Positions 872-51,123 of a DNA stretch of 51,554 nt are shown here, in pieces. The notes under the pieces were generated by a model, which saw only the letters and a program-made list of their open reading frames with translations, did not search any database and had not been told where the DNA came from. The translations under genes were made by a program, and so were the position numbers. The stretch covers positions 66,115 through 117,668 of the forward strand of contig JAZJZC010000003.1 in assembly GCA_040390045.1 (NCBI GenBank), given 5' to 3'. Positions within the stretch are counted from its first letter, which is position 1. Each line of letters opens with the position of its first letter. This DNA comes from Patescibacteria group bacterium (GTDB taxonomy: Bacteria; Patescibacteriota; Minisyncoccia; Phycocordibacterales; SIBU01).

Positions 872-1140
872 CAACAAACAAGCGAAGCGCCGTTAGCTGT
901 GCGCTCGGAGCAAGCTCTAAACGAGCTTGCGTGGGGAATCGAACAGCGGAGTGTTGTTTTGCGAGCACGCAAAACCGCGAGCTGGTGCTCGACTTATTTT
1001 TATTTATAAAAATAGAAGTCCCCTTGTGGGACAGACAAACCTTTGCGACGGCGAAACTTGAGTCGCGGGCGATTCCAAAAATGGGAAAGGTATACTGTCC
1101 ATGTAATGGAAGATTCCCCCCCCCGAGAAGAGTACTTCTC
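872..1140 (+). repeat. tRNA 3'-flank structured element, Lys copy
   Basis: Linker caacaaacaagcgaagcg. tgtgcgctcgg (898-908) is the exact reverse complement of tRNA 863-873. Inserted hairpin at 909-932. ggggaatcgaac (933-944) is the exact reverse complement of tRNA 851-862. Several internal hairpins follow. gaaaggtatactg (1085-1097) precedes tcca-tgtaa-tgga (1098-1110). A degenerate sense copy agattcccccccccgag lies at 1111-1127. Confidence 0.65.
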
Positions 1141-8514: not shown

Positions 8515-8769
8515 ACGGGCTCTCCGGCCAGACGCTTCGCTATCGAACTCTTTGCAAAGAATCTTCTTTGGCAGGAGTATCTCCCTCGGCAGGAAATCTT
8601 CCGTTACACGGACGGTCTCCTCGTTGAAACTTTATGGCAGGAGTATCTCCCTCGGCTAAAACTTTTCCGTCGAAAAGTTTTGCCTGGGCACCGGCTCGAA
8701 AAATTTTCTGCTGAAAATTTTATACTCCGCCGTTCGATTCCTGCCGGGAGCCACTCTCTGGCGTTCGTG
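8515..8769 (-). repeat. tRNA 3'-flank structured element, Arg(GCG) copy
   Basis: On the + strand, gttcgattcctgccgggagc (8732-8751) is the exact inverted copy of tRNA 8771-8790. The gcggagt box lies at 8724-8730 on the minus strand. The tccg-tgtaa-cgga hairpin (minus strand) lies at 8600-8612. A degenerate sense copy lies at 8578-8600. A 21-nt direct repeat ggcaggagtatctccctcggc occurs at 8570-8590 and 8636-8656. Confidence 0.65.
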
Positions 8770-8841
8770 TGCTCCCGGCAGGAATCGAACCTGCATTTCT
8801 CCCTTCGCAGGGGAGTGTCCTATCCATTGAACGACGGGAGC
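8770..8841 (-). tRNA. tRNA-Arg(GCG)
   Basis: Minus strand sequence is GCTCCCG..CGGGAGC-A. Anticodon stem CTCCC/GGGAG, loop CTGCGAA, T arm GCAGG-TTCGATT-CCTGC. No CCA. Confidence 0.9.
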
Positions 8842-8849
8842 GTCGGTGA

Positions 8850-8878
8850 AGTGTAAAACGAAAAGCAAAAAATGTAAA
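8850..8878 (-). promoter_or_regulatory. sigma70-like promoter of tRNA-Arg(GCG)
   Basis: On the minus strand: TTTACA, 17 nt, TACACT, then 8 nt to the tRNA 5' end. It is nearly identical to the promoter of tRNA-Arg(TCT). Confidence 0.6.
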
Positions 8879-8924
8879 ATTCCGCGTCTTCCGCGTTTGT
8901 TCTGCGAAGTTCCGCGTGGCTTCA

Positions 8925-9392
8925 CTAAAAACCCAAATATTCTAAAACTCTTTTGGCGAGCGGCTCACTATGCTCTTCTTCTGGAAGATATTTTTTAAGG
9001 TGGTCATGTACTGTGTCGGCAGGAATGTCTCGAATCGGAATTACGATGTAGGGTAATAATTTCTTTTTTGATTTTAAAATAATTTTATGTTCAACGTGTT
9101 GATCTTCAACACAAAAAGATTCTATCGATGAATAGAGATAGCGAATTTTACCCTCTTGAATGCCTCGGTTGTCGAGTTTAATTGGTAAAAGATTTGGCTT
9201 GCGGTTGGCGTAGAGCATCAGGGTACACAAACTCAGAATAATAAAGATGGCAAATAGCACATTGTTAAAAAGAACGGCGGTGATTGCGACAGAGACGGCG
9301 ATGATTCCGACTGCCCAATACCAATCAGCACTTTTTTCCGTGTAGTTGTACTCGTAGGCTTCCCACTCGAGAACACCTTTTTTATTTTCCAT
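8925..9392 (-). CDS. hypothetical membrane protein (155 aa)
   Basis: Two adjacent TM helices (WYWAVGIIAVSVAITAVLF, AIFIILSLCTLMLY) followed by a soluble C-terminal domain. Confidence 0.55.
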   Translation of the reverse strand: MENKKGVLEWEAYEYNYTEKSADWYWAVGIIAVSVAITAVLFNNVLFAIFIILSLCTLMLYANRKPNLLPIKLDNRGIQEGKIRYLYSSIESFCVEDQHVEHKIILKSKKKLLPYIVIPIRDIPADTVHDHLKKYLPEEEHSEPLAKRVLEYLGF

Positions 9393-10604: not shown

Positions 10605-10796
10605 TTTTGTTGCGGAGGAGGTGAGAGTTTCTCCTACAATTTTTTTCGCCGTCGCTCAAAAAATCCTAGGCGCCGGATTTCCGACACTCGCTGGTGCGAG
10701 CGTAGACCGGAAAACCCGTTCGAATCTCCCACGAAAAATCTTTGATTTTTCTTTCCTCTCGCAAATTAAAACCGCCCATAAAGGCGGTTTTATTTG
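10605..10796 (-). repeat. tRNA 3'-flank structured element, Ser copy
   Basis: In minus-strand order: terminator aaaaccgcc-tttatg-ggcggtttt (10769-10792); tgcgagagga (anti-acceptor-like); inserted hairpin gaaaaatc-aaa-gatttttc; gtgggagattcgaacggg (antisense T arm); degenerate tgtaggagaaac box. A 17-nt exact direct copy of the tRNA 3' end lies at 10610-10626. Confidence 0.6.
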
Positions 10797-12620: not shown

Positions 12621-13712
12621 ATGAAAAAAAGTTTCTCAGAATTTTTTCCGATACCAAAATTTCTAGAAATGAGATCGGTGGGTCTCGCTATTTCTGAGCG
12701 TTCTGTCCACGCTATTGAATTTGTGAAAGGCCCCAAGGGTTTGAGGGTAGGGCGTTTTGGTCTTTGGAAAATTCCTGCCGGCGCTATTAAGGGCGGGTAT
12801 GTCAACGACAAAAAAGTGGTCACTGATGTCTTGCGCAAATTACAGAAAGACCTTTCGATTGAGTTTGTCAGCGCTTCACTTCCTGAAGAAAAAGCCTATT
12901 TGTTCAAAACAGAATTTCCTAAAGCTGGAGTGACTGATTTGCGAGAAACGATCGAATTTCGCTTGGAGGACAACGCTCCCGTGTCCGCTCGTGACTCTTT
13001 ATTTGATTTTGCGGTAATTCCCGGACAGCCGGACTCAGATCATGTCGACGTTAGCGTGTCGGTCTTGCCTACTAAGGTTGTCGAAGTGTATCTTGAAATT
13101 ATAAAAGACGCGGGATTGAAACCTGTTTCCCTTGAAGTTGAGGCCACGGCTATTAGTCGCGCTGTTGTTCCCGCAAAAAATCTCGGAACTTTTTTGATTG
13201 TAAACGTTGGCAAAGTCAGTACCTACCTTTCTATTGTCAGTCGTGGCGTTGTGCAATTTAGCATCACGATACCTATCGGCGCCGATAGCTTAACGGCTGG
13301 TATCGCTAAACATTTTGCTGTTGATATGCCGGCGGCCAAAAAAATAAAAGAGGAGCGCGGGTTTGTTAAGGCCAAAGAAAATACTGAAGTATTTTTGTCT
13401 CTCGTAGACGCAGTATCCGGCATACGAGATGAAGTGAACAAGCTTTCGGTGTACTGGCAAACTCATCGAAATTCTCCGGGGGCTACTGGCAAAAAAATCG
13501 AAAAAATAATTTTGTGTGGTCGCGACACCAGTTTGGTTGGCTTCAGTGAATATTTGTCGACCTCAGTAAAAATTCCAGTTGAACTCGCCAATGTTTGGCA
13601 GAACGCATTTTCATTCGATGATTTCACACCATCTATCAGTTTTAGAGATTCACTCAATTATGCCAGCGCCATTGGGCTAGCCTTACCAGACGAAATTAAC
13701 ATGCATGTTTAA
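12621..13712 (+). CDS. pilM: type IV pilus assembly protein PilM
   Basis: Actin-like ATPase fold pattern (GLAISERSVHAIEF, LIVNVGKVSTYLSIV, ILCGRDTSLVGFSEYL). It is followed by PilN/O-like genes. Confidence 0.8.
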   Translation: MKKSFSEFFPIPKFLEMRSVGLAISERSVHAIEFVKGPKGLRVGRFGLWKIPAGAIKGGYVNDKKVVTDVLRKLQKDLSIEFVSASLPEEKAYLFKTEFPKAGVTDLRETIEFRLEDNAPVSARDSLFDFAVIPGQPDSDHVDVSVSVLPTKVVEVYLEIIKDAGLKPVSLEVEATAISRAVVPAKNLGTFLIVNVGKVSTYLSIVSRGVVQFSITIPIGADSLTAGIAKHFAVDMPAAKKIKEERGFVKAKENTEVFLSLVDAVSGIRDEVNKLSVYWQTHRNSPGATGKKIEKIILCGRDTSLVGFSEYLSTSVKIPVELANVWQNAFSFDDFTPSISFRDSLNYASAIGLALPDEINMHV

Positions 13713-15188: not shown

Positions 15189-15217
15189 TTTACATTTTTC
15201 AATTTTAGCTTTACACT
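15189..15217 (+). promoter_or_regulatory. sigma70-like promoter of tRNA-Arg(TCT)
   Basis: TTTACA (15189-15194), 17 nt, TACACT (15212-15217), then 8 nt to the tRNA 5' end. Confidence 0.6.
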
Positions 15218-15225
15218 TCACCAAC

Positions 15226-15300
15226 GCCCTCGTAGCTCAATGGATAGAGCAGTGCTCTTCTAAGGCATTGATGCGGGTTCGATTCCCTCCGAGGGCACCA
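15226..15300 (+). tRNA. tRNA-Arg(TCT), CCA encoded
   Basis: Acceptor GCCCTCG/CGAGGGC, anticodon loop CTTCTAA, T loop TTCGATT, then A-CCA. Confidence 0.9.
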
Positions 15301-15414
15301 AATAAAAAATTCCCGGAAGGGAATTTTTTATTTGGTGCCCGAGAGGAGCCAACGATTTGGCTCCGTGAGGAAATTGGGGTACTGCTTTTGTAAGGGGAGA
15401 TTCGCTCGCGACTC
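15301..15414 (+). repeat. tRNA 3'-flank structured element, Arg(TCT) copy (compact)
   Basis: A 21-bp perfect hairpin (15294-15339) uses the tRNA GGCACCA end. Then come tggtgcccgaga (anti-acceptor), the inserted hairpin ggagccaa-cga-ttggctcc (15347-15365), and gtgaggaaattg. ggggtactg precedes cttt-tgtaa-gggg (15385-15397). The element ends with agattcgctcgcgactc. Confidence 0.6.
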
Positions 15415-15420
15415 AAATTT

Positions 15421-15539
15421 TGCGGTCAGGACTTTTTGTTCGGCCGTCGCCTCACAAAAGTCACGAAAGAAAGACTCGTTGTGGTCAGGAATAATTTTGT
15501 TTTCGTCAAAACAAAATTTTCACGAAGTCTCTCGACACT
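15421..15539 (+). repeat. two tandem degenerate ~59-nt units
   Basis: tgcggtcagga... (15421) and tgtggtcagga... (15480). Each unit contains a hairpin on a TTTTGT/ACAAAA core and ends in tcacgaa(a)g. Confidence 0.5.
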
Positions 15540-15638
15540 CACTACTGTTCGCCTGCCTCGACTGTTTTGTCTGCTGACGAAACATGTCTCAGGCTCGCAC
15601 AAGTCCGAAAAAATCTCCAGTCATGGAGATTTTTTGGC

Positions 15639-15792
15639 TTGTGCGCGCTGAGAGATTTCGAAACTTACAGTTTCAGTACCCGCGATTGGATTTTTTCTAC
15701 GTTCAGAAACTAGAAAAAATGCTCAATCGGGCTTCGAATCTCTCACGGAAGCGTCCCACGCTTCCTAGCGCCACAACTCACTTCGTTCGTTG
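15639..15792 (-). repeat. tRNA 3'-flank structured element, Val copy
   Basis: In minus-strand order: linker caacgaacgaagtgag; tgtggcgct (anti-acceptor); inserted hairpin ggaagcg-tggga-cgcttcc; gtgagagattcgaagccc (antisense T arm); gggtactg followed by aaac-tgtaa-gttt (15661-15681). A 19-nt exact direct copy of the tRNA 3' end lies at 15639-15657. Confidence 0.7.
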
Positions 15793-15866
15793 TGCGCGCT
15801 GAGAGATTCGAACTCCCGACCCTCGCAGTGTAAATGCGATGCTCTAACCAACTGAGCTAAGCGCGC
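15793..15866 (-). tRNA. tRNA-Val(TAC)
   Basis: Acceptor GCGCGCT/AGCGCGC, anticodon stem TCGCA/TGCGA, loop TTTACAC, T arm GGGAG-TTCGAAT-CTCTC, discriminator A. No CCA. Confidence 0.9.
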
Positions 15867-18527: not shown

Positions 18528-18680
18528 CAAACGAGCGAAGCGAGTATGGCCGGGATGTAAGCTCTGGGAGAGCTTACATAAGGACTCGAAGACCTTTGAT
18601 AGTTTTCTGGAGTGTAATCACGAACAGAAAACAGAAAAGGTGTACTGAAACTGTAAGTTTCGAGATTCCTGTCCTAGGCA
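18528..18680 (+). repeat. tRNA 3'-flank structured element, Leu copy
   Basis: Linker caaacgagcgaagcgagta, then tggccggga. Inserted hairpin tgtaagctc-tggga-gagcttaca (18556-18578). taaggactcgaag is the antisense T arm. gaaaaggtgtactg precedes aaac-tgtaa-gttt (18648-18660). Sense copy cgagattcctgtcctaggca at 18661-18680. Confidence 0.7.
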
Positions 18681-19405: not shown

Positions 19406-19595
19406 CACGATAAAAGCGGCGCGAGCCGCTTTTTGAGTGTGTGACTAAGGAAGTCGGCGACCCGACTTCCGGTCGGGAGTTGAAAACCTTCTCCTAAATT
19501 TCTGAGACATTCTCATGACGAAGAAATAGGAAAGGTGTACTGCTCCTGTAAGGAGAAACTCCCGAAAAATTTCGAGGGAAGCTCCCGATAGTCAC
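19406..19595 (+). repeat. tRNA 3'-flank structured element, His copy
   Basis: Terminator aaaagcggc-gcga-gccgcttttt. tgtgacta is the anti-acceptor. Inserted hairpin ggaagtcgg-cgac-ccgacttcc. cgggagttgaaaacc is the antisense T arm. ggaaaggtgtactg (19529-19542) precedes ctcc-tgtaa-ggag (19543-19555). ctcccgatagtcac (19582-19595) is an exact 14-nt direct copy of tRNA 19391-19404. Confidence 0.7.
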
Positions 19596-22010: not shown

Positions 22011-23693
22011 ATGACTCAAGAGGCGGCTTTCACAATTTTAAAAACCGGGGCCAACGTTTTTTTGACGGGGGAGCCCGGCTCCGGAAAAACGCATAGCGTT
22101 AATCGCTACGTGGAATATTTGCGTGAACATGACATTGAACCAGCCATTACCGCTTCAACTGGCATTGCTGCGACGCATATTGGAGGTGTGACTATTCACT
22201 CATGGTCCGGCATCGGCATTGCCAAAGTTTTGTCGGAACAAGATCTCGATAAAATGGGAACCAACGAACGATTGACCAGGCGTGTTTCTCGCGCCAAAGT
22301 TTTGATCATTGATGAGATTTCAATGCTCGATGCTTTAACACTGACCGCGGTTGATCAGGCGTGTCGCGCACTCAGAAGAAATCAAGAAGTTTTTGGCGGA
22401 CTTCAGGTGGTGTTTGTGGGAGATTTTTTTCAGTTACCGCCAATCTCGAGAATGGGTGAGCCACCATCGAAGTTTGCCTTTATGTCGCCATCGTGGAAGG
22501 ATGCGTCGCCACTTATTTGTTATCTCACCGAGCAACACCGTCAGGATGACGAACAATTTATTTCCTTTTTATCGAGTCTTCGCAGTGGGGATGTGGATGA
22601 GGGTGCTCATTTAGCGCTCACCGAGAGAAGAATTGAACCAAAAGCCGGAGCGGCGCATACCCATACGCGATTGTATTCGCATAATATTGATGTCGACAAA
22701 GTGAATAATCAAAAATTAGCCGCCATTGCGAGCGACGTTCGTGAGTTTATTATGGATTCAGTTGGGCCGGAGAGATTATTACTCGGACTTAAAAAAGGCT
22801 GTTTGTCGCCGGAACGATTGTTGCTTAAAGTTGGCGCGCGAGTGATGTTTACCAAAAATAATTTTGAAGAAGGTTTTGCCAATGGAACACTCGGAGAAAT
22901 TTCCGGCTTTAGTGACACTGGCGCTCCAATAGTCGCGACGCTCGGCAGCGCTAAAATTGCAGTTGAGCCGATGGAGTGGACGATTACTGATGGTTCAAAA
23001 ACTTTGGCTAAAATTACCCAAGTGCCGCTTCGACTTGCCTGGGCCATAACGGTGCACAAAAGCCAAGGTATGACACTCGATGCGGCGGTGATTGATCTTT
23101 CTCAGGCGTTTGAATACGGCCAAGGCTACGTAGCGCTTTCACGAGTCCGTTCATTTTCGGGTTTGTTTTTACTCGGGTACAACCAGCGCGCGCTTGAAGT
23201 CCACCCAGACATTTTAGTTGTTGACAGTAAGTTTAAGGAGCAGTCGGAAGAGGCGGGCGATGCTTTTGAAAAATTGTCCCCAGCAGAACTTCAAAAAATG
23301 GAGAAAAATTTTATTCGAGCTTGTGGAGGAACTCCTGAGAAGATACAACCTAAGAAACTTAAAAGTTTAAAAAAGAAAATTCCTGGCGTGACAACATACG
23401 ACGAAACCTTTGACTTGTGGAAGGCGGGGAAGTCAATCGCCGAGATTGCAACGTTGCGTGAGATCGGCACGCGAACGGTCACTGCTCATTTTGAGGAACT
23501 TTTCATGCGAGGAAAAGTCACTACAGACGATTTGCGGAAAATTATTTCAATCGAGGCCGAAAAAAATTTAACCGAAATTAGAGCAGTGTTTAAAGAACTG
23601 GGCTCTGAAAAATTGGCACCGGTGTTTGAGGCACTCGGCAAAAAATATTCATACGATGATCTCAATCTCATTCGCGCCGCATTTTTGAAATAG
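22011..23693 (+). CDS. PIF1/RecD-like SF1 DNA helicase with C-terminal HTH domain
   Basis: Walker A GEPGSGKTH, VLIIDEISML, VGDFFQLPPI and AITVHKSQGMTLD. The C-terminal segment KSIAEIATLREIGTRTVTAHFEEL is HTH-like. Confidence 0.8.
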   Translation: MTQEAAFTILKTGANVFLTGEPGSGKTHSVNRYVEYLREHDIEPAITASTGIAATHIGGVTIHSWSGIGIAKVLSEQDLDKMGTNERLTRRVSRAKVLIIDEISMLDALTLTAVDQACRALRRNQEVFGGLQVVFVGDFFQLPPISRMGEPPSKFAFMSPSWKDASPLICYLTEQHRQDDEQFISFLSSLRSGDVDEGAHLALTERRIEPKAGAAHTHTRLYSHNIDVDKVNNQKLAAIASDVREFIMDSVGPERLLLGLKKGCLSPERLLLKVGARVMFTKNNFEEGFANGTLGEISGFSDTGAPIVATLGSAKIAVEPMEWTITDGSKTLAKITQVPLRLAWAITVHKSQGMTLDAAVIDLSQAFEYGQGYVALSRVRSFSGLFLLGYNQRALEVHPDILVVDSKFKEQSEEAGDAFEKLSPAELQKMEKNFIRACGGTPEKIQPKKLKSLKKKIPGVTTYDETFDLWKAGKSIAEIATLREIGTRTVTAHFEELFMRGKVTTDDLRKIISIEAEKNLTEIRAVFKELGSEKLAPVFEALGKKYSYDDLNLIRAAFLK

Positions 23694-47517: not shown

Positions 47518-50500
47518 ATGGACGAAAATCTCAAGAAAAATCCACTAGTGGAAAACGAAGAAAAAACTCTGAAATTTTGGCGTGAAAATAGTATTTTCGA
47601 GAAATCTTTGGCCAAAGAGTCGCCAAAAGGTGAGTTTGTTTTCTATGAAGGCCCCCCAACAGCCAACGGTCGCCCCGGTATTCATCATCTCGAGGCGAGA
47701 GCTTTTAAAGATGCCATTCCTCGATACAAAACCATGCAAGGGTTCCATGTTCGTCGCAAAGGCGGTTGGGATACGCACGGGCTTCCCGTTGAGTTGGCGG
47801 TTGAAAAAGAACTTGGCCTTAAATCAAAAAAAGAAATTGAAGTATACGGCATCGAGGCTTTTAATAAAAAATGCAAAGAAAGTGTTTGGAAATTTGTCAG
47901 TGAGTGGGAAGAATTTACCCAGCGCATCGGCTACTGGGTTGATCTGAAAAATCCTTATGTTACTTACAAACCAGAGTACATTGAATCGGTCTGGAATATT
48001 GTTAGTAAAATAAACGAACAGGGACTTTTGTATAAAGATTACAAGGTGGTGCCGTGGTGTCCGAGGTGTGGCACCGGGCTTTCGAGCCACGAACTGGCAC
48101 AGGGGTATGAGGATGTGAAGGATTTGTCGGTTACAACTAAGTTCAAAGTTAAAAGTGAAAAGTTTAAAAGTAAAGACGGGGAGGAAACCTATTTGTTGGC
48201 ATGGACGACTACGCCGTGGACACTTCCTGGAAATGTCGGACTAGCTGTTGGAGAAAAAATTACCTACCAGCTCGTTGTATCGGAAGGGTTACAGTATATC
48301 GTTGCCAAGGAGCGAGCAGCAACAGTTTTCAAAGAAAAAACTTTTGAAGTAGTTCAAGATATTTCAGGCAAAGAACTTATTGGTTTGGAATACGAACCAC
48401 TGTACCCATTTCTCAAAGATAATCTTTCCGAGACTGAAAAACCAAAATTGGCCAATGCGTTTAAGGTTTATCCTGCGAATTTTGTAACCACAACCGATGG
48501 AACTGGAATTGTGCACACTGCAGTGATGTATGGAACGGATGACTTTGAGCTTGGCAATAAAGTTGGCTTACCGAAACATCACCTGGTCAAAGAAGACGGA
48601 ACCTTTAAAGAAGAAGTTGGTTTTTTGGCGGGGAAATTTGTGAAGCCCGCCCGAACGACTGAAGCCAGTGTTCAGTCGGGCGGGGATGAAGGCGTCGACA
48701 TTTTGATTATAAAAGATTTAGCCGGACGTGGGTTGTTATTCTCAAAGGAAAAATATTCTCACAGTTATCCGCACTGTTGGCGCTGTCACACCCCACTTAT
48801 CTATTTCGCCCGAGATTCTTGGTACATCAAGATGTCTGCGCTTCGCGAAAAATTACTTTCAGAAAATGAAAAAATAAATTGGGAACCCGATTATATTAAG
48901 CATGGCCGGTTTGGTGAATGGTTGAAGGACGTAAAGGATTGGGCAATTTCCCGAGAGCGATATTGGGGAACGCCGTTACCTGTTTGGAAAACTTCAGCTA
49001 CTTCGGGAAACGCCGAAAAATATGTCGTAATCGGATCAATTGCTGATCTCAAAAAGTATGCCAAAAAATCTGGCAATACCTATTTCGTAATGCGTCACGG
49101 CGAGTCGGTTCACAATCTTGAGTGGAGGATCAGTACTACGCACGACAATCGTGAGGATTGTCTGACTGAAAAAGGTAAAGCTCAGGCTTTAGCTTCAGCG
49201 CAAACCCTCAAGGATAAAAAAATCGATATGATCGTAGTTTCGCCGTTCAAAAGAACCAGAGAAACTAGTGAAATTGTGCGAGAGGCTTTGGGTTTGTCAC
49301 CAGAAAAAGTAACCCTCGATGAACGATTGCATGAGATCGGGGTGTATTCCTTTGAAGGAAAAACATGGGAAGAGTACCATGAGGTTTTTCCTAAAACTGA
49401 AGAATATTTTACCGCCAAGCGTGACGGTGACGAATCATATCTTGATGCGAAGATAAGAATGATGAAAGTTCTGTACGAGTACGAATCTAAATACCAAGGA
49501 AAAAATATTCTGTTTGTCACTCATGGAGGCCCAGGCTGGCTTCTTAATGCCGGTTCCCATGGACTATCACTATCTGAAACCTACAGTGCGATTAGTTCAA
49601 TTGATAACGCTCGACAGGATGGAATTAAAAACGCTGAAATTCGAGAGCTTGATTTTGTTCCTCTGCCACATAATGAAAATTATGAACTCGATCTCCATCG
49701 ACCGTTCATCGACGCAATCGAACTTATCGATGAAAATGGCGCGCCTATGACTCGCGCTAAAGAAGTGATGGATGTTTGGTTTGATTCAGGGGCAATGCCG
49801 TTTGCTCAGGACGCGGATCTACGCCGAACAGACGCAGAATCCGCCGCGGCGGACGGAAAAAAATCGTGGGACGATATTTCTTACCCTGCGGATTTTATTT
49901 CTGAGGCCATCGACCAGACTCGCGGTTGGTTTTATACGTTGCACGCAATTGGCGTACTGACCGGGAAGGGAAGAGCCTACAAAAATGTTATTTGCCTTGG
50001 ACATATTTTGGATGCCGAAGGCAAGAAGATGTCGAAATCTGTCGGGAACGTGGTTGACCCGCACAAAATGATTGAAAAGTATGGCGCAGACCCATTACGA
50101 TTTTGGATGTACAGTGTTAATCAACCCGGAGAGCCAAAAAATTTTGACGAAAAAACGGTAGATGAGATCGTGAAAAAGGTTTTTAATCTCACATCGAACG
50201 TTCTCACTTTCTACCAGTTGTATGCAGAAACAGAACACGGATCACAGAACACAGAACACGAAAAGCAAATCAGTAACAACGTTTTAGACCAATGGATACT
50301 CACTCGACTCAATCAACTCGTTGCCGAAGTTACAACCTCTCTCAATTCTTATAAATTACTCGAACCAACTCGGGCGATCCGTGATTTTATCGCCGACCTA
50401 TCGCAGTGGTATTTGCGGCGATCGCGCGACAGATTTAAGGGGGAAGATGAAGCGGATAAAAATTCTGCTCTACAAACTACAAATTACGTACTGCTGACTC

Positions 50501-51123
50501 TTGCGAAAGTCATGGCTCCATTTACTCCATTTTTTGCTGATTTCTTGTACAAAGGAGTTGAGGGAAAAGAGCAAAGTGTTCATTTGGAGAAATGGCCCGA
50601 AGAAAGTTTAAAGTTTAAAGTTGAAGGTTTAAAAGTTCTGGAGCAAATGGAAGAAGTGAGAAAAATTGTTTCGCTTGGATTAGAACAACGAGCAAAGGCT
50701 GGGATAAAAGTTCGACAACCGCTCCAAAAATTAAAAATTAAAAGTGAAAAGTTAAAAATTTCTGACAAGGATTTTCTCGGGCTCGTGAAAGATGAAGTGA
50801 ACGTCAAAGAAGTCGTCATTGATCTCAGTCTGTCGACCGAAGTAGAACTCGATCTCAACATCACTCCCGAACTTAAAGAAGAGGGAAGTGTTCGAGAATT
50901 TGTTCGCGCGATACAGGATTTGAGAAAGACCAGTGGATTTAATCCAGGTGAATTAGCTGAGCTTACTGTTGATGCGGACGAAAAAACTTTACAATTTTTA
51001 CAGAAATACGAGAAAGATCTCATCAAATCGACTCAATTAAAGAAAATTCAATATGCCTCTGTGTCAGGCGGGACAGAAGTTTCTCTCGAGGAAGCAAAGG
51101 TAAAAATTTCTATTTCTAAATAA
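47518..51123 (+). CDS. ileS: isoleucine--tRNA ligase (type 2) with inserted histidine-phosphatase domain
   Basis: PPTANGRPGIHH (HIGH), WTTTPWTLPGN, WAISRERYWGTPLPVW, DVWFDSGAMPF and KMSKSVGN. At 1201 aa it is long for IleS. Confidence 0.9.
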   Translation: MDENLKKNPLVENEEKTLKFWRENSIFEKSLAKESPKGEFVFYEGPPTANGRPGIHHLEARAFKDAIPRYKTMQGFHVRRKGGWDTHGLPVELAVEKELGLKSKKEIEVYGIEAFNKKCKESVWKFVSEWEEFTQRIGYWVDLKNPYVTYKPEYIESVWNIVSKINEQGLLYKDYKVVPWCPRCGTGLSSHELAQGYEDVKDLSVTTKFKVKSEKFKSKDGEETYLLAWTTTPWTLPGNVGLAVGEKITYQLVVSEGLQYIVAKERAATVFKEKTFEVVQDISGKELIGLEYEPLYPFLKDNLSETEKPKLANAFKVYPANFVTTTDGTGIVHTAVMYGTDDFELGNKVGLPKHHLVKEDGTFKEEVGFLAGKFVKPARTTEASVQSGGDEGVDILIIKDLAGRGLLFSKEKYSHSYPHCWRCHTPLIYFARDSWYIKMSALREKLLSENEKINWEPDYIKHGRFGEWLKDVKDWAISRERYWGTPLPVWKTSATSGNAEKYVVIGSIADLKKYAKKSGNTYFVMRHGESVHNLEWRISTTHDNREDCLTEKGKAQALASAQTLKDKKIDMIVVSPFKRTRETSEIVREALGLSPEKVTLDERLHEIGVYSFEGKTWEEYHEVFPKTEEYFTAKRDGDESYLDAKIRMMKVLYEYESKYQGKNILFVTHGGPGWLLNAGSHGLSLSETYSAISSIDNARQDGIKNAEIRELDFVPLPHNENYELDLHRPFIDAIELIDENGAPMTRAKEVMDVWFDSGAMPFAQDADLRRTDAESAAADGKKSWDDISYPADFISEAIDQTRGWFYTLHAIGVLTGKGRAYKNVICLGHILDAEGKKMSKSVGNVVDPHKMIEKYGADPLRFWMYSVNQPGEPKNFDEKTVDEIVKKVFNLTSNVLTFYQLYAETEHGSQNTEHEKQISNNVLDQWILTRLNQLVAEVTTSLNSYKLLEPTRAIRDFIADLSQWYLRRSRDRFKGEDEADKNSALQTTNYVLLTLAKVMAPFTPFFADFLYKGVEGKEQSVHLEKWPEESLKFKVEGLKVLEQMEEVRKIVSLGLEQRAKAGIKVRQPLQKLKIKSEKLKISDKDFLGLVKDEVNVKEVVIDLSLSTEVELDLNITPELKEEGSVREFVRAIQDLRKTSGFNPGELAELTVDADEKTLQFLQKYEKDLIKSTQLKKIQYASVSGGTEVSLEEAKVKISISK
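49081..49620 (+). other. histidine phosphatase (PGAM/CobC-like) domain embedded in IleS
   Basis: YFVMRHGESVHN (RHGxxxxN), SPFKRTRETS, LHEIGVYSFEGKTW and FVTHGG. It lies between the conserved WGTPLPVW and DLHRPFID segments. Confidence 0.7.

Follow-up and report, generated by a model that had tools for sequence, protein, structure and literature searches.

Covarying hairpins behind Patescibacteria tRNA genes belong to apparently undescribed tRNA-gene-associated insertion modules

What is a small hairpin doing behind one tRNA gene after another, when its stem is rewritten from copy to copy and its loop stays the same? The question is raised by a gene-dense stretch of 51,554 nucleotides (nt) from the genome of a Patescibacteria bacterium (contig JAZJZC010000003.1, positions 66,115 to 117,668), a member of the candidate phyla radiation (CPR); this whole stretch was analyzed and is referred to here as the window. 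A reading made from its letters alone (the sequence-only reading) had pointed out a box, GGTRTACTG, and a hairpin with a TGTAA loop in front of a second copy of the tRNA 3′ end, and had proposed that compensatory stem changes across copies reflect selection on a folded RNA or single-stranded DNA (ssDNA) rather than on primary sequence. Here, we describe that box and hairpin belong to tRNA-gene-associated insertion modules in CPR bacteria that are apparently undescribed, as full-text searches of the literature returned no description of the element. Three points had escaped the sequence-only reading: the hairpin is one arm of a larger three-way junction supported by covariation, helix accounts for only half of the box and joiner for the other half, and the unit that contains both behaves as an insertion element.

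The window was compared with two sets of loci, 80 syntenic loci from species-representative genomes (the first set) and 80 from metagenomes, and the L-numbers used below designate such loci of related genomes. The nearest syntenic loci come from metagenome-assembled genomes of Paceibacteria that bear the names Kaiser-, Taylor-, Yonath- and Nomurabacteria.

Architecture and fold of the unit

Each of the seven tRNA genes in the window (Lys, Arg-GCG, Ser, Arg-TCT, Val, Leu and His) is followed, on the same strand, by one non-coding unit of 110-260 nt whose parts come in a fixed order; two of these seven copies are degenerate. The tRNA 3′ end runs into a loop, which is either an intrinsic terminator with A/T tracts that lengthen its stem or a minihairpin of the GAGCGAAGCGAG type. 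Next comes an antisense copy of the acceptor 3′ strand, often with a few trailer bases. A hairpin (H1), whose loop is usually of the YUGGGR kind, may follow exactly at the acceptor/T-stem boundary, and then the T-stem 3′ strand and the T-loop are copied in antisense, ending in ...TYGAA. A conserved core leads into a sense copy of the tRNA, which begins inside the T-loop and extends slightly beyond the 3′ end. Sense copies span 9-24 nt, and some reach 3-16 nt into the trailer. In the most common arrangement (~2/3 of units, counted by eye) an intrinsic terminator lies between the tRNA and the antisense copy, which the remaining ~1/3 lack. Terminators adjoining tRNAs were read by eye; a simple terminator scan overlooks them because the A and T tracts lengthen the stem. 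Such a terminator and the acceptor form one long perfect palindrome, as at the Leu gene of L002, the Arg gene of L076 and positions 15296-15337 of the window. The minihairpin recurs as GA-[GC or AC]-GAA-[GC or GT]-GAG, a GNA triloop flanked by GA dinucleotides; it serves as the loop between tRNA and antisense arm at window positions 872-897, 15776-15792 and 18528-18545, and it is also found at the tip of the core hairpin P3 in one class A subfamily (L049, L076, L078).

The box and the TGTAA hairpin are located in the core of the unit, and they make up the 3′ half of its class A form (defined below). All six hairpins listed by the sequence-only reading were found in place (Table 1), as were the degenerate Ser copy (10630-10640, ending in ...TTGTAGGAGA), the boxes at 1085-1097 (Lys), 18634-18647 and 19529-19542, and the box GGGTACTG at 15377-15384 and, on the minus strand, 15674-15681. 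GGTRTACTG occurs four times in the window against 0.14 expected, a count reached by no shuffle, and the motif counts and shuffles together rule out a chance origin of box and hairpin. One of the four, at 13448 inside a coding open reading frame (ORF), is a chance match unrelated to the element, because the covariance model described below gives no match there. Two descriptions were refined. The box is present as described but composite: its first bases (GGT, GGG, CCT) covary with ACC, CCC and AGG ~40-70 nt upstream and form the 3′ strand of a helix (P2), so that only the joiner GTAC(Y)G is constant. Likewise, the constant part of the TGTAA loop is an invariant GUA triloop, whereas its outer bases pair (U:A in 20 copies, C:G in one and U:G in one). 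The hairpin, P4, thus consists of a variable stem of 4-5 bp, a U:A closing pair and a GUA triloop. Together, these parts define what we designated as the class A core, which begins with a single base and continues with the 5′ strand of P2, the variable hairpin P3, the 3′ strand of P2, GTAC(Y)G and P4.

Covariation was assessed in 22 class A copies from 15 sources in the first set, with P3 excised before pair counting. The 11 pairs of P2 and P4 are paired in 94.2% of cases versus 56.5% in column shuffles (none of 500 shuffles as high), and 10 of the 11 vary on both sides. When, as a control, the 3′ partner is slid by 1-3 columns, pairing falls to 22-56%. RNAalifold, run unguided on the unedited MAFFT alignment including P3, recovers P2 and P4 as well as the U:A loop-closing pair. 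Another 15 copies found by the covariance model in metagenome loci show 95.7% pairing versus 66% in shuffles, in an alignment that was fitted to the model. The covariation of P4 is no artefact of the T-stem of the tRNA: its 3′ strand overlaps tRNA positions 52-56, and the complement is missing from the tRNA. Interior pairs that are not Watson-Crick are G-U only, never A-C, and when each core is compared with its complement, folding is better on the tRNA-sense strand in 17 of 24 (Wilcoxon p = 0.005). Therefore, the structure forms on the tRNA-sense strand, either as RNA or as top-strand ssDNA. The proposal of selection on a folded molecule is hence supported by covariation in two independent sets and by strand asymmetry, and what the sequence-only reading saw holds in 36 additional copies from related genomes. 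G-U pairs are scarce overall (22 of 566 predicted pairs).

In the modeled fold, P2, P3 and P4 form a three-way junction that the antisense and sense copies of the tRNA 3′ end can close. Predicted folds of whole units have this antisense:sense helix as their closing helix, with H1, P2-P3 and P4 as arms. Whole units fold with z-scores of -2.8 to -5.4 under RNA parameters and -4.3 to -7.4 under DNA parameters; these energies do not discriminate between RNA and DNA, because both are significant and the complementary strand is too. The strands of the class A junction are GAAN, GUACYG and 0-1 nt, P3 carries a GNRA loop, and GA-rich internal loops are found in the cores. From their letters, the joiner and the GAA of the antisense T-loop may engage in a loop-E-like GUA/GAA pairing. 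The GUA loop and the joiner's UAC are directly adjacent, which makes a pseudoknot between these segments sterically impossible.

Association with tRNA genes and signs of mobility

A covariance model built from the class A alignment was used to search 1.14 Mb, resulting in 32 matches at E < 1e-4. Twenty-six of these lie downstream of an annotated tRNA gene on the same strand, 25 of them no more than ~450 nt away; the other one, 1.3 kb from its tRNA, sits at the far end of an array that contains cargo. Five more matches lack upstream sequence because they sit at contig edges, and one lies elsewhere, so that 26 of the 27 interpretable matches are linked to a tRNA. Of the strand space searched, ~6% falls within 700 nt downstream of a tRNA. 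An equal frequency of the motif away from tRNA genes, which the sequence-only reading had named as evidence against itself, is thus not what we see.

The frame of antisense and sense copies is present at 63 of the 329 tRNAs with enough downstream sequence, and its distribution is patchy. L002 has it at all seven tRNAs (by eye) and L039 at five of six, while L008, L012 and L013 have none. At empty orthologous sites, the tRNA is followed by a short spacer or a simple terminator and then by the same next gene. In L002, 61 nt of the core behind tRNA-Leu recur without change behind tRNA-His, with arms that match each tRNA, and subfamilies of P3 recur at different tRNAs in different genomes. Units are therefore gained and lost among orthologous tRNAs and share a core between different tRNAs, with arms matching the local tRNA.

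Besides single units, tandem arrays are found in L075, L049, L317 and L341. The L075 array consists of a class A unit, a class C unit and a class A-like match, and L317 contains two class A units. Behind a tRNA-Leu of L341 (1607-1880), two near-identical class A units of 135 nt stand in tandem with trailer and differ by a 1-nt insertion, which looks like a recent duplication through recombination between direct repeats. Some arrays enclose genes. Between the L317 units lies a SocA/Panacea toxin-antitoxin pair (antitoxin and partner ORF), and two small zinc-ribbon HNH endonuclease genes are found in L317 directly upstream of tRNA-His. In L025 (801-1427), an unannotated ORF, whose sequence suggests a DUF218/YdcF-like protein, is enclosed by a class E unit and a class A unit with one tRNA-Leu(CAG) repeat in common.

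One class A copy is ectopic. It is located at 16860-16990 of L023, directly after the stop codon of rplK (ribosomal protein L11), and its core is flanked by antisense (ACGTCGAT) and sense (TTGACGTGAAGTAA) copies of the last 14 nt of rplK. The target, GGGGATCGACG, resembles a T-loop, and apart from the stop codon, the two copies of the last rplK codons show synonymous differences only. This case came from the motif scan; a generic search for triples of a sequence, its complement and the sequence again away from tRNAs gave mostly chance hits or unrelated repeats.

The class A core is not the only one to occupy the frame. About 30 units have a class B/C fold, of the form RNC-CGGAG-[hairpin, often with an AGCA loop]-CGAG-GN'Y-GGKG...-[hairpin]-...GTGAC or AGYCGAGGG, between the same antisense and sense arms. 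The RNC and GN'Y triplets covary in all 18 copies read from the alignment, and the 3′ hairpin covaries too. Hybrids that join a class B 5′ part to class A occur in L340, L356 and the Lys unit of the window. Several unrelated structured cores (A, B/C and the rarer D and E) thus serve one frame, and the core class at a given tRNA differs between genomes: A, C or E are found at Val, A, B or C at Leu, and A, B, C or D at His.

The window copies and their surroundings

Complete class A units are found behind Val, Leu and His, and the other four copies of the window depart from this layout (Table 1).

Table 1. Units of the window, their parts and related features. Positions refer to the window unless a locus is named.
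Feature	Position	Strand	Description
Lys unit	872-1127	+	Behind tRNA-Lys (799-872); composite of class B core and class A 3′ part
Lys trailer	872-897	+	GCGAAGC minihairpin
Lys antisense acceptor	898-908	+	
Lys H1	910-930	+	
Lys antisense T-arm	931-944	+	
Lys core	945-1076	+	Class B
Lys box	1085-1097	+	GAAAGGTATACTG; P2 3′ strand AAAGGT and joiner; variant with TA insertion
Lys P4	1098-1110	+	TCCA-TGTAA-TGGA
Lys sense copy	1111-1127	+	AGATTCCCCCCCCCGAG; truncated within acceptor strand
Lys covariance-model match	1029-1120	+	34.7 bits
Arg-GCG unit	8581-8768	-	Class B core, then class A 3′ remnant
Arg-GCG antisense copy	8732-8753	-	20 nt exact
Arg-GCG core	8648-8731	-	Class B
Arg-GCG pseudo-sense	8636-8647	-	
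Arg-GCG box	8613-8620	-	Degenerate
Arg-GCG P4	8600-8612	-	TCCG/CGGA
Arg-GCG sense copy	8581-8599	-	
Ser unit	10609-10795	-	
Ser terminator hairpin	10763-10795	-	
Ser antisense acceptor	10754-10762	-	
Ser H1	10733-10751	-	
Ser antisense T-arm	10718-10732	-	
Ser core	10630-10717	-	B-like, with degenerate hairpin
Ser sense copy	10609-10629	-	
Arg-TCT unit	15298-15411	+	Truncated class A; P2 5′ strand and P3 deleted; covariance model E = 0.11
Arg-TCT acceptor/terminator palindrome	15296-15337	+	
Arg-TCT antisense acceptor	15334-15346	+	
Arg-TCT H1	15346-15363	+	
Arg-TCT box	15377-15384	+	GGGTACTG
Arg-TCT P4	15385-15397	+	CTTT/GGGG; three G-T pairs
Arg-TCT sense copy	15398-15411	+	Decayed
Val unit	15639-15791	-	Complete class A; covariance model 70.2 bits
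Val minihairpin trailer	15776-15792	-	
Val antisense acceptor	15766-15775	-	
Val H1	15747-15765	-	
Val antisense T-arm	15733-15746	-	
Val P2	15724-15731 with 15680-15688	-	
Val P3	15688-15723	-	
Val joiner	15674-15679	-	GTACTG
Val P4	15661-15673	-	AAAC/GTTT
Val sense copy	15639-15660	-	
Leu unit	18529-18680	+	Complete class A; covariance model 82.7 bits
Leu minihairpin trailer	18528-18545	+	
Leu antisense acceptor	18546-18555	+	
Leu H1	18556-18578	+	
Leu antisense T-arm	18579-18590	+	
Leu P2	18592-18597 with 18636-18641	+	
Leu P3	18598-18635	+	
Leu joiner	18642-18647	+	
Leu P4	18648-18660	+	AAAC/GTTT
Leu sense copy	18661-18680	+	
His unit	19407-19595	+	Complete class A; covariance model 71 bits
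His terminator	19409-19437	+	
His antisense acceptor	19438-19448	+	
His H1	19449-19470	+	
His antisense T-arm	19471-19484	+	
His P2	19486-19490 with 19532-19536	+	
His P3	19491-19531	+	
His joiner	19537-19542	+	
His P4	19543-19555	+	CTCC/GGAG
His sense copy	19556-19595	+	Broken by small hairpin
Class B/C cores	945-1076, 8648-8731, 10630-10717		Also in L042, L043, L049, L375 and others
L317 cargo	1731-2577 and 4424-5471 of L317		Between or beside units

The ORFs of the window are housekeeping genes (Fpg, MurE, RuvA, PilM, UppS, RluD, NusG, ThyA, FolA, SHMT, ArgRS, IleRS and the ribosomal proteins L19, L11 and S20). Pfam scans of 57 ORFs of the window detected no integrase, transposase, HUH enzyme or reverse transcriptase. 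The only notable DNA-transaction enzyme near the tRNA cluster is a PIF1/RecD-family helicase with a C-terminal HTH_40 domain (22011-23693), in which neither an HUH nor a Rep domain was found. In the IleRS ORF (47518-51123, 1201 aa), a histidine-phosphatase domain (His_Phos_1, residues 523-689) is inserted into the class I catalytic domain. Both tRNA-Arg genes are preceded by a near-identical stretch, TTTACACTTCACC(G/A)ACGC (8850-8878 on the minus strand and 15189-15217 on the plus strand), which contains a promoter-like TTTACA...TACACT pair. The tRNA-Arg at 8769-8841 has the anticodon GCG instead of the usual bacterial ACG, as in the relatives L002, L039, L040 and L076, and none of the six window tRNAs whose 3′ ends were read has an encoded 3′ CCA. 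Mechanically called ORFs of 72-129 aa cross the non-coding units and tRNAs at 814-1203, 8656-8925, 15332-15577 and 15584-15802; units thereby yield spurious ORF calls that gene callers could report as hypothetical proteins.

Known relatives and possible mechanisms

Is the unit a member of a known family? In a scan of Rfam 15 for known RNA families, only tRNA passes the gathering score, and the class A, B, C and E regions have no Rfam match at E <= 10 (permissive scans give noise only). Hammerhead-like, hepatitis delta virus-like and group II domain V cores were considered for classes A and B and rejected, as the motifs do not fit; the junction strands do not match the hammerhead catalytic core (CUGANGA...GAAA around three helices). 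A viral origin was rejected as well, since contigs in IMG/VR lack the element: pattern scans returned >200 loci, of which four have a complementary stem and none has the context of the element.

By architecture, the unit is nearest to elements with hairpin attachment sites. In CTX phage, a single strand folds so that its two inverted half-sites make a duplex-like site, of which one strand is exchanged before replication resolves the product. CTX attP(+) and other Xer-exploiting integrative elements (IMEX) share with the unit an integrated order of target, short loop, inverted copy, body and direct copy, which can be read directly at all seven window tRNAs and in 63 units overall; with an enzyme supplied in trans, such an element can be tiny. 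They differ in their target, which is dif instead of a tRNA T-loop and 3′ end, and the units described here are gene-free, 110-260 nt long and equipped with tRNA-specific arms and a conserved three-way junction between them. Integron attC sites fold and recombine along the same lines and are recognized by their folded single-strand structure, with one strand active (PMC3458562, PMC5027507). As in attC, structure is kept rather than sequence and folding is strand-specific, and as in integron arrays, growth occurs at one anchor site with small cargo, including toxin-antitoxin pairs, between sites. Moreover, homology breaks at ...GAA|C and G|TTC, placed as the crossover in RYYYAA|C and G|TTRRRY. 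However, the R″ (RYYYAAC) and R′ (GTTRRRY) consensus is replaced by NTYGAAC and GTTCRAN (fourth position pyrimidine or C), the R-like boxes adjoin the core inside the antisense:sense helix instead of forming the base of a stem, the anchor is a tRNA gene, and none of the 57 window ORFs has a Phage_integrase match.

Other families resemble the unit in part. In the classical sublocation of tyrosine integrases, reportedly set out by Williams in 2002, the direct repeat begins in the T-loop and extends a few nt beyond the tRNA. Indeed, such a repeat is the normal footprint of tRNA-gene integration (PMC9897764), and cis-mobilizable elements accrete in tandem (PMC5704250). The attL/attR sites of integrase islands thus share with the units the repeat past the 3′ end, the regenerated intact tRNA and the tandem accretion, but islands and cis-mobilizable elements are ~100 times larger, carry an integrase or derive from carriers of one, and have neither an antisense copy nor a covarying core. 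No insert seen here encodes or adjoins its integrase, the cargo being the L025 ORF and the L317 toxin-antitoxin pair. MITEs (miniature transposable elements with inverted repeats), repetitive extragenic palindromes (REPs) and palindrome elements of the IS200/IS605 type are likewise short, non-coding, hairpin-rich, repeated and non-autonomous. Their terminal repeats are family-specific and their copies near-identical, whereas here the repeats are target-specific and the stems covary. In place of the family-specific terminal inverted repeats and short target duplication of MITEs, the arms equal the local tRNA end, and the long direct repeat, the antisense arm of 12-25 nt, the variable stems and the lack of a transposase in the window all depart from IS200/IS605 and REP/RAYT elements. 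Finally, tRNA-like RNAs (tmRNA, viral tRNA-like structures, mascRNA) share a closing helix that mimics acceptor and T-stem stacked on each other plus a single side arm, and R2 retrotransposons, through their flank-pairing 5′ ribozymes, share an internal segment that pairs with host-gene sequence. The units, in contrast, have no T-loop elbow or CCA and no covariance-model match to these RNAs. Their predicted closing helix corresponds to acceptor and T-stem with H1 at the junction, but the T-loop is paired or replaced by the core, and CCA is not encoded. Taken together, the unit family misses at least one defining feature of every known family tested.

We tentatively favor, with less than even confidence, a reading in which the units are miniature non-coding, non-autonomous site-specific insertion elements of Paceibacteria tRNA genes that are recombined as a folded single strand at the T-loop, like CTX attP or attC. 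The hairpin of sense arm, loop and antisense arm would form a duplex image of the attachment site between T-loop and tRNA 3′ end, and the three-way junction would be the arm that a hypothetical trans-acting recombinase, probably a tyrosine recombinase, recognizes by shape. Exchange of one strand within the T-loop and subsequent replication, in the manner of CTX attP(+) at dif or attC at attI, would produce the tRNA 5′ part joined to an element-borne 3′ end, the loop, the antisense arm, the core and the displaced 3′ end of the host gene. This predicted order matches the one observed at all seven loci. Insertion would thereby regenerate a functional tRNA, often with its own terminator. The terminator located upstream of the antisense arm in most units argues against obligatory co-transcription and fits the apical loop of a hairpin. 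Besides this apical terminator, such a hairpin site would account for the tiny, gene-free size, the arrays at one anchor and the recognition by shape. GNA triloops (GTA, GAA) are stable in DNA, and together with the low G-U content they lean, weakly, towards DNA as the folded molecule.

Several observations weigh against this reading. No gene for a recombinase, transposase or reverse transcriptase was seen in the 51.5-kb window or next to any unit examined. Retargeting does not follow from it, as a new tRNA requires a new 3′ end and its complement together. In the tRNA-Leu of L317 (1291-1700), the T-loop reads TGCAATT and has G at position 55, which is U almost everywhere else; both units of this tRNA carry the exactly matching antisense AATTGCA, while their sense copies are canonical-like (TTTCAAATTTCC). 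The match to this odd T-loop therefore suggests templating on the target or concerted evolution rather than arms carried by the element. Whichever tRNA they follow, sense copies moreover often contain a generic AGATTCC or two inserted nt at T-loop position 59/60, and the simple model predicts neither. Units occupy both strands while the GC skew indicates one replication direction across the window, and there is therefore no lagging-strand-template bias. The position of H1 exactly at the acceptor/T-stem junction, the GA-type internal loops and the GNRA loop look RNA-like. Lastly, the metagenome scan for same-species relatives, which would give exact insertion boundaries, returned nothing closer than 78% protein identity, and the loci compared include neither an excised form nor an empty-site polymorphism within a species. 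These misfits are why an RNA-level element, a host accessory, an HUH-type transposon and inert scars keep their weights as rival explanations.

A role at the RNA level is possible, if on the unlikely side. The unit would then be part of a read-through transcript of the tRNA, in which a tRNA-like closing helix, with H1 replacing the D and anticodon arms, surrounds a catalytic or protein-binding junction, and it might be processed by RNase P/RNase Z or by self-cleavage and spread as an RNA that is reverse-transcribed or reverse-spliced, comparable to the flank pairing of R2 5′ ribozymes. The placement of H1, the GNRA loop of P3, the GA-rich internal loops and the possible loop-E-like contact would all be at home in such an RNA, as would G-U pairs on the sense strand only. 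Unrelated cores that are interchangeable in one frame recall the classes of self-cleaving ribozymes, and the third of units that have no terminator in front could be transcribed together with the tRNA. Against this role, a canonical intrinsic terminator precedes the antisense arm in the other two thirds, and a simple sigma-70 scan found no promoter-like site inside any unit. The low G-U fraction, the Rfam scans without a ribozyme or other match and the window ORFs without a reverse transcriptase speak against it too, and the sense copies follow the gene including its trailer instead of the mature, CCA-ended tRNA.

The L317 arms raise another, unlikely but still credible, scenario, namely a mobile element of a new kind, with arms that are templated on the target. 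Fold-back or guide-like copying would make the antisense and sense copies anew at each insertion, the target being a tRNA or, rarely, a T-loop-like end of a protein gene, and the class A and B/C junctions would be new catalytic or recombinase-recruiting folds of RNA or ssDNA.

That the unit is instead a host-beneficial accessory of the tRNA seems quite unlikely. As a 3′ module homogenized by gene conversion, it would control termination, 3′ processing, folding or turnover through its antisense arm, which the sense arm would counter as an anti-antisense. The fixed orientation at seven of seven tRNAs in both the window and L002, an antisense arm that tracks its tRNA (including the lineage-specific T-loop of L317) and the structure kept between distant genomes are in line with such a role. 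Yet many close relatives lack units at the same tRNAs, one tRNA can have different core classes in different genomes, the Arg-TCT, Ser and Lys copies of the window are decayed or truncated, units are duplicated in tandem and one stands behind rplK, and a terminator is usually located upstream of the unit.

We consider it very unlikely that the units are moved as ssDNA by an HUH-type transposase (IS200/IS605-like and palindrome-associated, or REP/RAYT-like) that reads hairpins while a short guide pairs with the target. Strand-specific hairpins, a GTAC(Y)G that adjoins a hairpin much like the GTAG/CGTC heads of REPs, and an internal segment complementary to the upstream flank are reminiscent of these transposons, but the known families make no direct target repeat of 15-40 nt, their guides measure 4-5 nt rather than 12-25 nt, their stems are constant within a family, and no Y1 transposase is encoded in the window. 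Hardly any credence remains for inert scars, that is, attR remnants of repeated integration and deletion of integrase-bearing islands or prophages, which would share the footprint (PMC9897764) and the tandem accretion (PMC5704250) described above but would not retain a compensatory three-way junction across dozens of genomes, carry an antisense copy of the tRNA end or recur at seven of seven tRNAs without an integrase remnant.

Returning to the folded-single-strand element that we favor, its confirmation would mean that CPR genomes, which measure ~0.6-1 Mb and have few recognizable mobile elements, carry prolific elements of 110-260 nt that are recognized by shape and regenerate the tRNA gene they enter. 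Recombination of folded single strands, as in integrons and CTX phage, would then extend to tRNA genes; alternatively, the cores would represent new classes of structured RNA. In practical terms, palindromes beside tRNAs can disturb assembly and the calling of tRNA fragments. A common core with target-specific arms also raises the question of how targeting is reset, which is relevant to programmable insertion, and an element that templates its arms on the target would, if real, be naturally reprogrammable.

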